Assembly: GCA_018238155.1 (NCBI GenBank)
Contig: JABCTZ010000007.1
Location: forward strand, 1 to 64,000
Source: Candidatus Heimdallarchaeota archaeon
Lineage (GTDB): Archaea; Asgardarchaeota; Heimdallarchaeia; JABLTI01
DNA: 64,000 nt
Direction: 5' to 3'
Shown here: positions 7,461 through 64,000 of the stretch, one piece after another
Layout of the letters: each line of letters opens with the position of its first letter
Numbering within the stretch: the stretch's first letter is position 1
Program-made: the position numbers and the translations under genes
Notes under the pieces: model-generated
What the model was told of the DNA's origin: nothing
Seen by the model: the letters and a program-made list of their open reading frames with translations, nothing else
The model's database searches: none

Positions 7461-7841
7461 CTATCTTATTATAATTGCTCGGATTAATAAGAAAAACGTG
7501 AAGACCCCACATACCTCCAAGGAGTATCTCCGTAAAAAATCCCGATGCAAGTGTTCCTTTAAATTCTTATTCTTAAATAGTGCAATAGAATGTACTAGAA
7601 AATTAACAACAGCTAAAACTGATGCAAACAAACCGAAATAATAACCAACGATTAACTCAAAAAAAATCATTAGAAGAGTGCCCATGCTAAGGACCATTAA
7701 TCCTGATGCTACTAGAAGATATTTTGATAATGAACCATTAGGAATACGTGTATAAACTTCCATTGCTATCTCTGCAAAAAGAGGTAAAATTTGGAGGAAA
7801 ACAAGTACAAGCATGCTTATTGCAACAAATTCAAGAGACAT
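7461..7841 (-). CDS. Small 4-TM hypothetical membrane protein
   Basis: ATG start; four hydrophobic segments. Confidence 0.55.
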   Translation of the reverse strand: MSLEFVAISMLVLVFLQILPLFAEIAMEVYTRIPNGSLSKYLLVASGLMVLSMGTLLMIFFELIVGYYFGLFASVLAVVNFLVHSIALFKNKNLKEHLHRDFLRRYSLEVCGVFTFFLLIRAIIIR

Positions 7842-8023
7842 GAAGTAGAATTTCAGTCAAATAAATTAAATTTTGTGTTCTCTTCTAATTTACCTTATTG
7901 CTAAAAAAATATTTAACCAATCACTACTAAACGAAAAATTCAACTAAAACAGTAGGAAATGGAAAAAAACATTCTTTGGTAGTTTAATAATTGTAATTAT
8001 TATTTATAATCAGATGAGTAATA

Positions 8024-8539
8024 ATGAGTAATGACCTAGATTATGTAATAATAAAAGAATTAGAGATGAAACCAGAAAAATTAGAATCATTAATAGAAAA
8101 GATGGGCGAAATTGCATATGATTTAGAGGTAGAATTTGATTACAATAGTGACGAAAAAAATAATCAGAAAAACAAGAAAGAAACAGTAGATGGAAAAGAA
8201 GAGATGATGACAATTGAATGTTGGGATTTCTATTTTGAACGAAATGAGAAAACAAAGGATTATTTTTTGAAGAAAATTGAGAGAAATGATCGATGGTGGG
8301 ATCTGAAGTGGTGGCATACATCAGTACTGTACACAGTAATACTAAGAATGAACGCAAAAATACTATGGGTAGCCATAGATGAAGGATGGAACGGATTTAT
8401 GTTTAAAGTACATAAAGGGAAAATAGAAGTAAAAGAATTCCCATTTTATGAAACGTTAAAAAAAGCAATAATTTGGAATGAAGAATTTAAAGTTATAAAA
8501 CAAAAAAGAGTGAGAGAATTCTATTTTGAAGCAAAATAA
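8024..8539 (+). CDS. Hypothetical protein
   Basis: 171-aa ORF, strongly purine-skewed, no recognised motif. Confidence 0.55.
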   Translation: MSNDLDYVIIKELEMKPEKLESLIEKMGEIAYDLEVEFDYNSDEKNNQKNKKETVDGKEEMMTIECWDFYFERNEKTKDYFLKKIERNDRWWDLKWWHTSVLYTVILRMNAKILWVAIDEGWNGFMFKVHKGKIEVKEFPFYETLKKAIIWNEEFKVIKQKRVREFYFEAK

Positions 8540-8623
8540 TAGAAGATAGAAACAAACCATAAACTAACGAAAGATTCAAAAGGAAAAAAAGAACGATAAA
8601 AGAATACTAAAAGAGTAACATAC

Positions 8624-8731
8624 GGCCGGGTAGTCTAGCACGGTATGATTCCTGCTTTGGGACAATATGGGAGGAAATCCCAATTGCGAATTAGTAGGAG
8701 ATCCCGGATTCAAATTCCGGCTCGGCCACCA
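8624..8731 (+). tRNA. tRNA-Pro(UGG) with a 31-nt intron (8662-8692) at position 37/38 and encoded CCA
   Basis: Acceptor GGCCGGG/CTCGGCC; anticodon stem CCTGC/GTAGG; anticodon TGG 8658-8660; T arm CCGGA-TTCAAAT-TCCGG; bulge-helix-bulge with central helix TTTG/CGAA, bulges GGA and TTA, outer helix CAAT/ATTG. Confidence 0.95.
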
Positions 8732-9048
8732 TTTTCTATTCTTCTCTTAAATTGCCAGCTAGTTCTAGTTTGGTATTGTGTACCATATATTTATAGTTGA
8801 GATTGAAAGTTGCTTTTGGTTGATGTGGATATAACATCAATTCAATTTATAGTTGAAGAAGTAATCTATTTAATTTCTACAAAAATATTTTCAACAAAAT
8901 CTAATTTACAATTAATAATTAGCTAAATAAACACCTATTTAATTGAATTTCACCATAATCCTTTTATATTTTTGGAATACTATTTATTTCCCGATTTTTT
9001 TTGGGAAAAGGATATGGAGAAGATTATTTATGAAAAAAAAATGAGATA

Positions 9049-45052: not shown

Positions 45053-46927
45053 TTACTCTTTTTCTAGTGATGAAGGAACATAATAAAATTCGCCAACATC
45101 TCTTTGTGTTCGATCTAATCTTGAATTCTTTTTATTTACTCGAGGTCGTCCACTAACTTTATCTCTTCGGAAAGTAACATCTACTGCTTTGAGGAATTTG
45201 TTCATACCTCTTCGCAAAGTTGTTGGTGACTTAACTTTACCACTTATTCCAGATTCTCCTTCAAAAACCAATAAGCTATCACTAAGATAATCAATGAACA
45301 TAAGATCGTGATCAATGACGAATGCTGCTCTGCCACTGGCTCTAACTATTTTTTGAATTACTTTGCCAACAACCATTCTTGTTTCAGAATCAAGATAAGC
45401 ACTAGGTTCGTCGATTAAATACATATCACATGATTGTGCAAGTGTTCCTGCAACAGCTATTTTTTGTAATTCTCCCCCGCTTAAATCAGAGATGTTTCTA
45501 GTTAACAAGCTTTCAATTTTCAGTGGTCTGATTATTTCAGCTCTTGTCCAAGGATCAGCCAATAATGTGTCACTAATTGTGCGGAAGAATTCTTCAACTG
45601 TTCCATCGAACTCTAAGTTTATGTATTGAGGTTTATGAGCGATTTTCACGCCTTGTTTTTCATTTTTCTTGGAGTTTTCTTTGTTTTCCTTTTTAGATGT
45701 CTCTGGAAGATCCTCGTTAAGTTTTACTTTACCTGTTGTAGGTGTTTCATCACCAGCAAGAATCCTTGCAAAGGTAGTTTTGCCAATACCATTAGGACCG
45801 ATAATACCTATTGTTTCAGATTGATGGATAGTACCTGATTTAGCTGAAAATTTAAAACCATTGAAATCCTTAGTGAATTTTCCGTAATCAAGTGCTATTT
45901 TATGACTGCCATCGCTATCTGTCGGAGTAGGTAATCGGTTATAAATAATTGAATAATCTCTAAAACGCATGTTTTCATCAGGAATGAATCCATCCAGAAA
46001 AATATTGATACCATCCCTTACTCCTCTTGGATTGGTAACTATTCCATACGCTCCTGGGGAACCGTAATACATACTTATTTGATCACTAATAGCATCGCAA
46101 ACAGCAAGGTCGTGTTCAACATTTACAATTCTTCTCTTGTCAGAAATGAGTGTTCTAATTGCTTTAGCTGCATTCATTCTCTCTTTTACATCAAGAAAAC
46201 TTGAAGGTTCATCAAAGAGATAGACATCTGCATCTTTTACAATGGTCGCAGCAATTGCTACTCGTTGTAATTCTCCACCACTGAGTACAGAAAGTTCTCT
46301 TTCCCAGAACTTGTCAAGATTTAGTAAAGCTTTAACTTCATCAATTGCTCCAGTTTCATCAACTTTGGTAATGAGATCTTTAACAACACCCTTGGTAAGT
46401 TTGGGCAATCCACTAATTTCTTGAGGTTTGATAGCTGCTTTCAGGTCATTATTTTGCAGAGCTTGAAAATAATTCTGTAATTCAGAACCTCTAAATGTTT
46501 CAATAATTTCTTCCCATTCGGGAGGATCATCCCATCTTCCGAGATTTGGTTTTAATTTTCCGGAAAGAATATTCAATGAGGTTGACTTTCCAGCACCATT
46601 TTGACCTATTAATCCTAAAACAGAATTTGGTTTAGGTCTGGGTAATCGGTAGAGCTTGAATCCATTGCGACCGTATCTATGAACTAAATCTGTTTCAAGT
46701 TCATCTGGAAGATTAATAATTTGAATAGCTGTTCGAGGGCATTTTTTTATACAAATACCACATCCAGTACATAATAACTCGATTATTTTTGCTTTTCCAG
46801 TAGTCTCATCAAGACTGATACAATCTTCGTCTTCTGATGTTCGGTTGACTGGGCAAAAATTGATACATTCAAGAGCACATTTCTTTTTGTTACATTTTGC
46901 CCGCTCAACGATAGCAATGCGCGTCAT
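45053..46927 (-). CDS. rli: Ribosome recycling ATPase ABCE1 (Rli1)
   Basis: N-terminal 2x[4Fe-4S] Cys pattern (CTGCGICIKKCP); two NBDs; TFRRD..SGRPRVNK. Confidence 0.97.
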   Translation of the reverse strand: MTRIAIVERAKCNKKKCALECINFCPVNRTSEDEDCISLDETTGKAKIIELLCTGCGICIKKCPRTAIQIINLPDELETDLVHRYGRNGFKLYRLPRPKPNSVLGLIGQNGAGKSTSLNILSGKLKPNLGRWDDPPEWEEIIETFRGSELQNYFQALQNNDLKAAIKPQEISGLPKLTKGVVKDLITKVDETGAIDEVKALLNLDKFWERELSVLSGGELQRVAIAATIVKDADVYLFDEPSSFLDVKERMNAAKAIRTLISDKRRIVNVEHDLAVCDAISDQISMYYGSPGAYGIVTNPRGVRDGINIFLDGFIPDENMRFRDYSIIYNRLPTPTDSDGSHKIALDYGKFTKDFNGFKFSAKSGTIHQSETIGIIGPNGIGKTTFARILAGDETPTTGKVKLNEDLPETSKKENKENSKKNEKQGVKIAHKPQYINLEFDGTVEEFFRTISDTLLADPWTRAEIIRPLKIESLLTRNISDLSGGELQKIAVAGTLAQSCDMYLIDEPSAYLDSETRMVVGKVIQKIVRASGRAAFVIDHDLMFIDYLSDSLLVFEGESGISGKVKSPTTLRRGMNKFLKAVDVTFRRDKVSGRPRVNKKNSRLDRTQRDVGEFYYVPSSLEKE

Positions 46928-47130
46928 CTTTGCGTAGTAACCTTCAGATTTTTTTTGTTAATTTGACTTTCTCTGCCTATGTTTCGAGCCTTCTCTTCTT
47001 CGAGGTGGTTGCCCTCTCAGAGTCAGCATTGCTCATGGTCAGAGGAGAATGCATCTCAGCATCCGTAGCAGTTATGAGTGCTTCTCGTTCACTTGCCGAT
47101 AATGAGATTTTTACTTTAAAATCCTTCCTT
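46928..47130 (-). ncRNA. Promoter plus structured 5' leader with kink-turn, copy 1 (upstream of ABCE1)
   Basis: Paralogous to 63731-63928 (core 67/76 identical); K-turn CUCU-GA-GAGG...CCUC-GAA-GA-AGAG at 46993-47022. Confidence 0.75.
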
Positions 47131-47547
47131 CCATTTTTTCTTTTGTCCTTTAGTATTCAATTGCTTTTTTCTATTATCAGTTTTTTTGCATAATAACTTT
47201 CTATTGCTAAGTTCACCATTATTGACAAATGATTTCGTAAACTATTTCGTCCATAATTTATTGCTTCTACTACTCGTTTATATTCTTTGATAGGTGAATG
47301 TATTGATAAAGTTTGTAAGCGGAATGTTGGATTTGTTCCAGTTCGTTTGCCAAACGTCTGAAATCTATCTCTCCTTTCAAGTGAAGCAAAACATGAATTA
47401 GAAATTTTCAGCAGATATTTTCTGTCTCCCGACATAATTTTTTTTTCAGTAATATTTATTATTGTAATATCTTATTGTATCTATTGAATAGTTCTTTTTC
47501 TTGAATTATTCAGAGAGTGGAAAGAATTTGGAAAGAAAGCAGGGTTA

Positions 47548-63318: not shown

Positions 63319-63730
63319 TCGTTTTTCCTCGAGAATTCATAGGTGCATAATAGAATGTTTTTGTCGCTAAAAACAATCACTTCATTTATGTTTTTCTCAT
63401 ATATATACATAGCAGTTTCTGCAAAATTTTATCTTCACTGTATTTAATTAAAAGCATTCATTTTTATGTCGAAAAAGAACAATATTGGCTAAATAACAAT
63501 TCAATTTATTGTTGGAACGAAACACAGATTAATTATTTTTCTAAGAAACAGTATTCAAAGTCTTTCGTTATTTTTCAGTGAAATGTAAATAAAGTCCGAT
63601 AACCTTCATTTGAAAGATAGCTAACAGCTAGTTTTTTTATGTAATCTCTCTGAGAGAAGATATTTTTTTAAATGGCTTCATTAGGATTCATTAACATAAC
63701 AATAGTCAAAAATAAGAATATAACAATCAA

Positions 63731-63928
63731 AAGAAAGAATTATAAAGGAAAACTTTCAGAAACGGCAATAGGTAAAGAAGCAATCTTTATAGATACTAAA
63801 GATGCCTGAGAGGCATTCATCTCTGACCGTGAGCAACGCTAACTCTGAGAGGGCTTCCACCTCGAAGAAGAGACGGCTTAGAACATAGGCAGAGAATATC
63901 AAATAAAAAAAACGAAGGTTACTAAATC
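63731..63928 (+). ncRNA. Promoter plus structured 5' leader with kink-turn, copy 2 (upstream of rpl37e)
   Basis: Paralogous to 46928-47130; TTATAAAG at 63740-63747; K-turn at 63843-63872. Confidence 0.75.
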
Positions 63929-64000
63929 ATGACTAAAGGCACTCCCAGTAAAGGAAAAGCAAACCGCACTCCAACTCACATGCGCTGTAGACGCTGTGGC
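63929..64000 (+). CDS. rpl37e: 50S ribosomal protein L37e (5' part, runs off the window)
   Basis: MTKGTPSKGKANRTPTHMRCRRCG. Confidence 0.93.
   Translation, partial: MTKGTPSKGKANRTPTHMRCRRCG

Follow-up and report, generated by a model that had tools for sequence, protein, structure and literature searches.

Why should the DNA 5′ of two unrelated genes be alike from end to end? This question is raised by a stretch of 64,000 nt from a Candidatus Heimdallarchaeota archaeon (GCA_018238155.1, contig JABCTZ010000007.1, positions 1 to 64,000; hereafter the window), in which the leader of ABCE1 (46928-47130, minus strand, 203 nt) and that of the ribosomal protein gene rpl37e (63731-63928, plus strand, 198 nt) were found to be homologous over their full length. 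A first-pass annotation of this DNA had described the two leaders as paralogous copies of an unannotated kink-turn (K-turn) RNA and had viewed them as a possible regulon of translation genes. The paralogy and the structured RNA at these positions are both confirmed here. The regulon is not; instead, the element is probably a structured RNA at the right end of an array-less cassette of the ARAMP kind, derived from type III CRISPR systems and carried by Heimdall-group Asgard archaea, with the two copies of the window left behind as orphans. Where a copy is intact, the 3′ end of a cas gene, whose product we refer to as Cas5-HD, falls within the RNA.

Local alignment of the ABCE1 and rpl37e leaders gave a score of 105, whereas 300 shuffles averaged 12.8 and never exceeded 23. 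The core running from CTCTG to CAGAG displayed 65 identities over 74 nt; this is the core previously counted as 67 identities over 76 nt, with one flanking base added per side. The sequence details recorded for the two leaders were all present, including the TATA-like boxes TTTTAAAG and TTATAAAG, a spacing of exactly 15 nt to CGGCAA, and GAAGGTTACTA ahead of the ATG, and the outer stem with its K-turn was recovered as the minimum free energy (MFE) structure of both copies and is supported by family-wide covariation. When the whole window was compared with Rfam 15 at gathering thresholds, no matches were found, and at up to E 10 the element gave only chance-level rows (Rothia-sucC, 15.2 bits, E 2.4; DdR8, 13.3 bits, E 7.8), in line with the earlier remark that the RNA was not recognized as a known family. 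Features that had not been described include a 5′ domain, a 3′ hairpin with an A-rich loop, pseudogene remnants of Cas5-HD directly upstream, and 11 further genomic copies. The RNA features of the window and the genes that they precede are as follows:

46967-47110, minus strand: RNA core, ABCE1 side (cmsearch with covariance model R1, 155.5 bits, E 2e-33; full length; 40 of 41 model pairs canonical)
47053-47108, minus strand: 5′ domain, P1 AUCUCA/UGAGAU around P2-P4 (RNAalifold, pair counts)
46971-47044, minus strand: 3′ domain, with 10-bp lower stem, conserved internal loop, GCU/GGC helix and K-turn hairpin (MFE fold)
46993-47022, minus strand: K-turn, ABCE1 side (noncanonical [NC] helix CUCU/AGAG, tandem G.A/A.G, bulge GAA, canonical [C] helix GAGG/CCUC)
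46928-46970, minus strand: 3′ tail of the element up to the ABCE1 start codon (degenerate A-loop hairpin and Shine-Dalgarno-like GGUUAC at 46937-46942)
45053-46927, minus strand: ABCE1 gene, 624 aa, the host gene downstream of the orphan RNA (open reading frame and translation)
63751-63898, plus strand: RNA core, rpl37e side (cmsearch R1, 120.7 bits; 36 of 41 pairs canonical)
63843-63872, plus strand: K-turn, rpl37e side (motif as in the ABCE1-side copy)
63895-63928, plus strand: 3′ tail up to the rpl37e start codon (GGUUAC at 63917-63922)
63929-64000, plus strand: start of rpl37e (51 aa; extends beyond the window end; translation)

The covariance model R1 describes a core of 146 positions with 41 base pairs and was built mostly from orphan copies, which raises the scores of orphans. 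The 146-nt core was found to form eight helices in two domains: (i) a 5′ domain closed by a long-range helix, AUCUCA/UGAGAU (P1), that encloses three further helices (P2-P4), a domain that amounts to five helix blocks in the pair count of 41 sequences; and (ii) a 3′ domain in which a 10-bp lower stem leads through a conserved internal loop to a short helix and the K-turn hairpin. When 41 distinct sequences, drawn from roughly a dozen genomes, were compared, 89.7% of the cells were paired, compared with 34 to 40% when the partners were slid, and compensatory changes were observed in 30 of the 41 pairs, a count reached by none of 500 shuffles; as this alignment was fitted to the model, it favors the structure somewhat. 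An independent MAFFT alignment of 12 copies gave a similar picture, with 89% of cells paired versus about 37% when slid and 18 pairs changed on both sides. Structural covariation in homologs, the lack of which had been named as a finding that would speak against the RNA, is present. In the lower stem of the 3′ domain, all 10 pairs displayed compensatory changes in the 41 sequences.

The proposal of a canonical K-turn also stood up to the wider comparison. When 42 copies were examined, the G and A of the bulged strand were present in 40 and 41, respectively, and those of the opposite strand in 34 and 41, while the bulge followed the consensus R-A-W (G in 21 and A in 19; A in 37; A in 23 and U in 14). 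The C helix was 90.7% paired with compensatory changes at three of four pairs, and the NC helix was 80% paired with such changes at all four. The GAUGC hairpin that had been placed ahead of this core fared less well. This local hairpin (GGAUGC/GCAUUC; 47053-47085, minus strand, in the window, and found in all copies) is indeed about 90% pairable; however, its covariation was no greater than in shuffles, and it shares bases with P1/P2, which are likewise about 90% pairable, such that the two are mutually exclusive. The alternative pairings could represent a conformational switch. Following the core, a short hairpin with an A-rich loop was identified whose stem sequence varies by locus; it folds in 25 of 30 tails, whereas shuffles averaged 4.4 and reached 10 at most, and 3′ of it lies, in the majority of copies, a Shine-Dalgarno-like motif (GGUGAU, GGUUAY, or GGAGAY). 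Both the hairpin and the motif are considered to belong to the element because they also occur ahead of tRNA genes and in copies with no gene downstream.

The distribution of the RNA was next considered across genomes. The genome that includes the window (G000, 4.08 Mb) was found to carry 12 copies by nhmmer and a diverged 13th, 5′ of aEF-2, by covariance model, while about 50 copies were detected in related genomes. Within the family, 10 of the 11 other genomes gave matches to R1; of 71 genomes that belong to other families in the class, 1 did. The genes found downstream include those for ABCE1, L37e, S19e, aEF-2, Rpo7, the RFC small subunit, EndA, GluRS, TopoVI-B, Snf7/ESCRT-III, PfkB, Roadblock, an Arf-like GTPase, an M20 peptidase, an E2 enzyme, and a DUF6320 protein, as well as tRNA genes, and some copies have no gene downstream. 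Genomes that are distant from one another carry the element at the same host genes (rpl37e in GCA_048883465.1, Snf7 in two other metagenome-assembled genomes [MAGs], and Rpo7 in six genomes), and an RNA tree clusters the copies by host locus; this pattern fits either old, vertically inherited insertions or locus-specific homing. The aEF-2 copy belongs to a diverged but intact cassette (L094; C42:25044-26827, minus strand) that encodes a Cas7 of 266 aa and a Cas5-HD of 363 aa and lies 29 nt upstream of aEF-2. In its RNA, P1 is preserved through compensatory changes (GUUUCA/UGAAAC) and the 3′ domain is enlarged, and since this RNA scores only 44 bits with R1, more distant RNA variants were probably missed.

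The origin of the element was revealed by copies in which a long open reading frame (ORF) runs into it. These ORFs encode a protein family of 340 to 375 aa, Cas5-HD, and in intact copies the RNA starts within the last ~100 to 135 nt of the ORF. No family was assigned to this protein in Pfam, NCBIfam, or padloc, and its named homologs are annotated as "hypothetical protein," mostly in Heimdall/Asgard MAGs. Alignment of the family revealed an invariant glycine-rich loop of the RAMP type and a series of likewise invariant H, HD, H, HH, and D residues. The AlphaFold2 model (pLDDT 82) consists of a ferredoxin-like RAMP domain (residues 1-120) followed by a helical domain (138-304). In an exhaustive structure search, the C-terminal domain was found to resemble the HD domain of Cas10/Csm1 (6ifk_A, Z 7.6, root-mean-square deviation 3.9, 152 residues aligned; 6mua_A, Z 7.2), and the N-terminal domain resembled RAMPs of the Csm4/Cas5 type (Z 6 to 7); these matches agree with the sequence motifs and with the Csm3/Cas7-like neighbor gene described below. 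Foldseek against the Protein Data Bank (PDB) returned no row for the model at E ≤ 0.001, with Csm3/Cas7 chains weakly matched. In the model, disorder (pLDDT < 50) is seen at residues 300-327, which the RNA encodes. In addition, the Cas5-HD stop codon falls at differing positions inside the element between copies, and nucleotide homology and pairing run past it. Based on these three observations, the constraint on this region acts on the RNA and not on the protein.

Cas5-HD was found to be part of a cassette with a recurrent gene order: an opposite-strand accessory gene, a divergent AbrB/MazE repressor gene (31.4 bits), a Csm3/Cas7-like gene, Cas5-HD, and the RNA. In G000, Cas7, Cas5-HD, and the RNA are found together at C17:17722-19522. 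For the Csm3/Cas7-like product, Pfam RAMPs scored 33.3 bits (cut-off 22.1), and padloc Csm3 was hit at 5.5e-8 and 2.7e-5. The accessory gene upstream of the other cassette genes is often of the LAGLIDADG type (34.1 bits); this is not always so, as one cassette has a gene for a 733-aa zinc-ribbon protein and another a DUF5655 gene. A contact between Cas7 and Cas5-HD through the RAMP domain was predicted with a score of 0.74, compared with 0.00 for the best control; at least 76% of contacts recurred between runs, with a partner pLDDT of at least 74. Of 80 solved complexes, 58 attained this mark, as did 2 of 110 mismatched pairs; these counts hold only roughly here since the prediction, which covers proteins only, used its own alignments. 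The predicted contact may owe its pass to the likeness of the pair to solved Csm3-Csm4. Cas1 was not recognized within the cassettes examined. At the C17:5431 copy, Cas5-HD is without ~55 N-terminal residues, and the ORF 5′ of that copy was rejected as part of the cassette, as it encodes an unrelated membrane protein.

Three ordinary CRISPR arrays of 14 to 22 repeats were also observed in G000 (C12:~7830-9006, C15:~363585, and C27:~25157), in which the repeat is 37 nt long (GTTTCAATACTCGTAAATGAGCTTTATTCTTTGCAAT or a sequence very similar to it); the genome therefore has canonical CRISPR besides the array-less cassettes. None of the three arrays adjoins an RNA copy or an intact cassette. A fragment corresponding to the N-terminus of Cas5-HD is located at C12:1891-2358, ~5.5 kb from one array.

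A pair of filled and empty sites demonstrates that the cassette is, or formerly was, mobile. Its insertions lie just 5′ of host genes and in many cases reach right up to the start codon. When the PfkB locus of genome G009 was compared with that of G000, a 4.86-kb insertion was found in the former that comprises the gene for the 733-aa protein, AbrB, Cas7, Cas5-HD, and the RNA, while the G000 site (C17, just 5′ of 64236) is empty. The right end of the insertion consists of the hairpin and then GGTGATAAG followed directly by TTG, flush with the PfkB start codon; the empty site reads AACATCTAGACTACT followed directly by ATG and is without a Shine-Dalgarno sequence. At GluRS, homology to G000 resumes 28 nt past the core, directly after GGUGAUAG, and at TopoVI-B it resumes 36 nt past the core, beyond a AUGUUAUUAAGAUA stretch that is degenerate. 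The GGUGAU-type motif is followed at most loci, 5 to 15 nt on, by the start of a co-directional gene; this leaves no room for a promoter, such that the host gene would be read through the RNA and use the Shine-Dalgarno sequence borne by the cassette. No target-site duplication was seen at the filled/empty junctions of PfkB. A repeat resembling a miniature inverted-repeat transposable element (MITE) was considered and rejected on this ground, together with the orientation of the copies, which matches that of the downstream gene, and their ends, mostly 5 to 15 nt before the start. The first-pass annotation had held that many dispersed copies away from gene starts would speak against a leader RNA; the copies are indeed many and dispersed, yet they are tied to gene starts and thus are not MITE-like.

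Several further observations relate to these boundaries. The left end of the PfkB insert and the host flank share a loose similarity of ~22 nt, of doubtful meaning. The 733-aa protein (L089:6511-8712, plus strand; G009:C9) has weak zinc-ribbon matches only and takes the place of the LAGLIDADG gene; it may be a mobility factor of its cassette subfamily. Filled sites often have weak start codons, such as TTG for PfkB in G009 (ATG in the empty G000 site) and GTG for Snf7. In all six genomes in which the Rpo7 site is filled (L017, L042, L043, L048, L062, and L076), the Rpo7 frame apparently starts at AUU (GGAGACAGAACA followed directly by ATT TAC), with AUG, GUG, and UUG all out of range. With respect to tRNA genes, an intron-containing, co-directional one (L055:1681-1814, plus strand; G005:C11; Rfam tRNA, 32.9 bits) starts ~6 nt past the GGTGATA end of an intact cassette; it was missed by ARAGORN, which detected only one antisense tRNA-Gly on the downstream flanks. 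In addition, tRNA-like 3′ ends in reverse orientation, unconfirmed as tRNAs, flank three other copies (including L012 and L047).

The two copies of the window are orphans of such insertions, in which the cas genes decayed and the RNA was kept as a leader. The remnants of the protein-coding part are located as follows:

46983-47435, minus strand: decayed Cas5-HD gene, C-terminal third, in two frames, including a 92-aa ORF at 47157-47435; overlaps the RNA (hmmsearch, tblastn)
47114-47121, minus strand: TATA-like TTTTAAAG, relic Cas5-HD codons D-F-K, possibly exapted as a promoter
63672-63809, plus strand: 45-aa ORF, relic of the Cas5-HD C-terminus with ITIKRKNYKGKLSETA (translation compared with family members P0024/P0061)
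63740-63747, plus strand: TATA-like TTATAAAG inside the 45-aa relic ORF, codons N-Y-K

Upstream of ABCE1, only positions 222-343 of the 344-position Cas5-HD profile were detectable by hmmsearch, split over two frames as 222-256 and 253-343. Upstream of rpl37e, the 45-aa ORF contains ITIKRKNYKGKLSETA, which matches the tails of family members such as P0024 and P0061. The segment that had been taken for a purine-rich B recognition element (BRE) and TATA promoter proved to be relic coding sequence of the Cas5-HD C-terminus: it reads I-K-R-K-N-Y-K at rpl37e, where AAT TAT AAA encodes N-Y-K, and R-K-D-F-K at ABCE1, where GAT TTT AAA encodes D-F-K, and the in-frame G-R-K-D-F-K-V-K-I-S-L-S-A-S-E on the ABCE1 side matches the IERKNYK subfamily of Cas5-HD. 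The exact spacing of 15 nt is accounted for by the inherited reading frame. The TATA-like box is conserved among orthologs of the S19e copy, orphans included, and to judge from this conservation it may have been exapted as a promoter.

The same two loci were compared in related genomes. The covariance model, run without filters, found no element 5′ of ABCE1 in G005, G007, G009, and G010, where the upstream neighbor differs, and none 5′ of rpl37e in five genomes; the ancestral context of rpl37e is an Sm-L37e operon (G005, G007, G010, and G011). Intact cassettes are present 5′ of rpl37e in GCA_048883465.1 and 5′ of Snf7 in two other MAGs. At rpl37e, G009 (L083, C4) has the insertion in common with G000 but with the whole RNA core deleted and the gene kept; what remains includes the TATA-like box (ATCGAAAGAAAGAATTATAAAGG) and a tail with GAAGGTTGA. 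The likeness of the ABCE1 and rpl37e leaders is thus due to common descent and not to a shared regulon.

As to function, the likeliest role of the RNA would be that of a partner of the Cas7/Cas5-HD complex, serving as a scaffold or control element. The K-turn of the cassette RNA would probably be held by L7Ae, for which two family genes are encoded in G000, and the A-loop hairpin and Shine-Dalgarno sequence would keep the captured host gene translated. Orphan RNAs would then slowly erode, acting at most as passive 5′ untranslated regions (UTRs) with a promoter derived from relic codons. In support of erosion, about five of the 41 pairs are broken in orphans, compared with about three in intact copies, and between orthologous orphans the changed pairs are mostly broken, while comparisons that involve intact copies mostly show compensation.

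Other observations weigh against this explanation. The predicted fold of Cas5-HD gave matches of middling strength (Z < 8), a score that alone is not decisive. A crRNA-like guide inside the element is unlikely, as the fold is without a long single-stranded variable segment. At the RFC locus, the RNA is 89% conserved among orthologs, compared with 72 to 78% for the pseudogene remnant and 73 to 79% for the coding sequence (CDS), and at the Rpo7 locus it is 85% conserved versus 52 to 68% for the remnant and 74% for the CDS; overall, the orphan RNAs at orthologous loci are about twice as conserved as the adjoining remnant and close to the downstream CDS in this respect. Such conservation of orphan RNAs fits retained function better than pure decay. 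The genome bins are also incomplete (G000 is 90.7% complete with 5.9% contamination). The copies at ABCE1 (C39:46928-47110, minus strand) and M20 (C39:169500-169680, plus strand) bear on the conservation of orphans, as they are 90% identical from P1 to the Shine-Dalgarno sequence only, with flanks that cannot be aligned, even though they lie ~120 kb apart on opposite strands. They group together in the RNA tree, and the ABCE1 copies of G006 and G011 fall in another RNA lineage than that of G000. The likeness of the ABCE1 and M20 copies suggests gene conversion between RNA copies, which could also explain the conservation of orphans. From these sequence comparisons we infer that the orphans are under relaxed constraint and do not form a maintained regulon, with the caveat that the evidence is mixed.

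Among the other explanations is a regulon acting in trans, in which orphan and cassette-linked leaders alike mark essential host mRNAs (ABCE1, L37e, S19e, EF-2, Rpo7, RFC, Snf7, and others) that the Cas7/Cas5-HD of intact cassettes binds or cuts, for example in shutdown upon infection. We consider it unlikely. It would account for orphan RNAs that are more conserved than their flanks at orthologous loci, for the presence of two orphans among the top-scoring copies (ABCE1, 155.5 bits; RFC, 155.3 bits), for the 13 RNAs of G000 against two or three intact protein sets, and for G011 and G002, which keep the RNA with no intact Cas5-HD found in bins that are 75% and 69% complete, respectively. The high orphan scores are, however, inflated by the construction of R1, and the enrichment of conserved informational genes downstream is equally explained by the landing sites of a homing-type element. 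Such a regulon is also hard to reconcile with the accumulation of broken pairs in orphans, the loss of the core at rpl37e in G009 while the gene was retained, the four congeners in which ABCE1 is without the element, and the copies that precede tRNA genes or nothing. A bolder and similarly improbable proposal is that the RNA is the missing nucleic acid of the ARAMP effectors and resembles an omegaRNA, with a fixed scaffold running into the host flank as a built-in guide, or, in a variant, with an effector that acts on essential host mRNAs via the shared leader. If the flank does act as a guide, the cassette would be an RNA-guided homing element of CRISPR ancestry, parked at the 5′ ends of essential genes. 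Its specific form, in which the ribonucleoprotein uses the host flank beyond the right-end scaffold as guide to recognize the empty allele and promotes homing or retention, appears rather doubtful. The overlap of the RNA with the 3′ end of the effector ORF, the sharp end of homology beside host sequence, the mobility of the cassette, and the locus-specific RNA lineages across distant genomes all speak for it. Yet the Shine-Dalgarno sequence and start codon after the boundary point to host-gene expression, the LAGLIDADG gene of many cassettes could home unaided, the effector genes encode RAMP and HD proteins with no RuvC/TnpB-like protein among them, and type III-like complexes use a guide 3′ of a short handle and not of a 190-nt fold.

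The two proposals of the first-pass annotation were considered alongside these. The model of a cis-regulatory K-turn leader that is bound by L7Ae and co-ordinates ribosome recycling with ribosomal protein genes has become quite improbable: although the K-turn consensus is found in nearly all copies, L7Ae-family genes are present, repression by L7Ae through 5′-UTR K-turns occurs in other archaea (PMC5539422, PMC6298567), and ABCE1, L37e, S19e, and EF-2 are among the downstream genes, a dedicated translation-gene regulon is contradicted by the heterogeneity of these genes, by the element's primary identity as a cas gene end, and by the absence of the element from ABCE1 in four congeners and from the ancestral Sm-L37e context of rpl37e. 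The K-turn also lies ~50 to 80 nt upstream of the Shine-Dalgarno sequence, which makes its direct occlusion impossible, and the putative BRE/TATA is relic coding sequence. The other proposal, a guide small RNA (sRNA) of the H/ACA-like or C/D-like type that is hosted by and co-transcribed with these genes, has very little left to commend it. The layout of the 3′ domain (lower stem, internal loop, upper stem, and apical K-turn) is that of archaeal H/ACA hairpins, and CUGA and GA motifs are present. Nevertheless, the alignment has no conserved ACA 3′ of the lower stem, where GAGAAR and variable bases are found instead, and the internal loop (GAGCAAU/UCGAAAC) is nearly identical in all copies, with no guide-to-guide difference between the sides of the pocket, so that the copies are not a guide set and the H/ACA-like alternative fails. 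The alignment likewise includes no terminal pair of C (RUGAUGA) and D (CUGA) boxes, only a single internal K-turn hairpin, and no Rfam snoRNA model scored above chance. The preferred explanation thus remains that of a right-end RNA of an ARAMP-type cassette.

The practical and biological meaning of this explanation extends beyond the two genes of the window. In annotation, neither regulons nor promoters should be read into these repeats, since what looks like a TATA box is a coding relic, and the insertion pattern explains why look-alike "leaders" precede housekeeping genes that have nothing in common in Asgard genomes. The ARAMP and HRAMP modules are listed among CRISPR derivatives that are equipped with RAMP proteins and devoid of an array; a folded RNA physically tied to a Cas5-HD gene provides a concrete candidate for an RNA that they may bind. 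The right end, with its own Shine-Dalgarno sequence flush to conserved start codons, together with the filled/empty pair, shows how such modules spread and persist.

Free-standing homing endonucleases, such as the seg and mob genes of phage T4 with their "intronless homing," are intergenic insertions beside highly conserved genes. The cassettes are alike in combining a LAGLIDADG gene with cargo, in their intergenic sites by conserved genes, and in the occupation of the same genes in distant genomes; they differ in that the LAGLIDADG gene is not in every cassette. In the OMEGA systems (TnpB and IscB), a structured omegaRNA or reRNA extends from within the 3′ end of the effector ORF to the edge of the mobile element, and a genome has many copies, some of them decayed. 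The cassette RNA shares the overlap, the boundary, and the multiple copies, decayed ones included. Unlike those systems, its proteins are RAMPs and a putative HD nuclease and not RuvC, there are no IS200/605 ends or TnpA, the RNA ends in a Shine-Dalgarno sequence that serves the next gene, and a guide is only hypothetical.

In the archaeal control by L7Ae, a K-turn in the 5′ leader of its own mRNA is bound by L7Ae, which regulates translation (PMC5539422; PMC6298567). The resemblance lies in a consensus K-turn hairpin within an mRNA leader of an archaeon that encodes L7Ae; the difference lies in a K-turn that is ~50 to 80 nt 5′ of the Shine-Dalgarno sequence, within a larger fold at the end of a cas gene and before unrelated genes. 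With the type III core (Csm3/Cas7, Csm4/Cas5, and Cas10 HD; PDB 6ifk, 6mua, and 9g9a), the cassette proteins have in common the predicted RAMP folds, glycine-rich loop, HD motif series, and predicted Cas7-Cas5 contact through the RAMP domain. Unlike that core, the cassette has no Cas10 palm/cyclase, Cas11, or Cas6, its HD domain is fused to a Cas5-like RAMP, and a fixed structured RNA stands in place of the repeat-spacer array. The closest counterpart is ARAMP, summarized as an array-less type III derivative of Asgard archaea with diverged Cas7 and Cas5 closest to type III and an associated nuclease (PMC8730458, PMC12669027). The cassette agrees with this summary in its Asgard host, diverged Cas7 and putative Cas5 homologs, putative associated nuclease, and lack of an array at the locus, as well as in the LAGLIDADG genes nearby, since Cas4-like and LAGLIDADG genes are found near some ARAMP loci. 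It differs from ARAMP as summarized in that (i) each cassette has a conserved, covarying RNA of ~190 nt, while the summaries name no RNA component (PMC8730458, PMC12669027); (ii) a distinct Cas1, associated with "most" ARAMPs according to the summary (PMC8730458), was not recognized in the cassettes examined; and (iii) the right end of the cassette is defined, its insertions fall at the starts of host genes, and the orphan RNAs that it leaves outlast the cas genes. The element is a new RNA family of a known but uncharacterized kind of CRISPR derivative.

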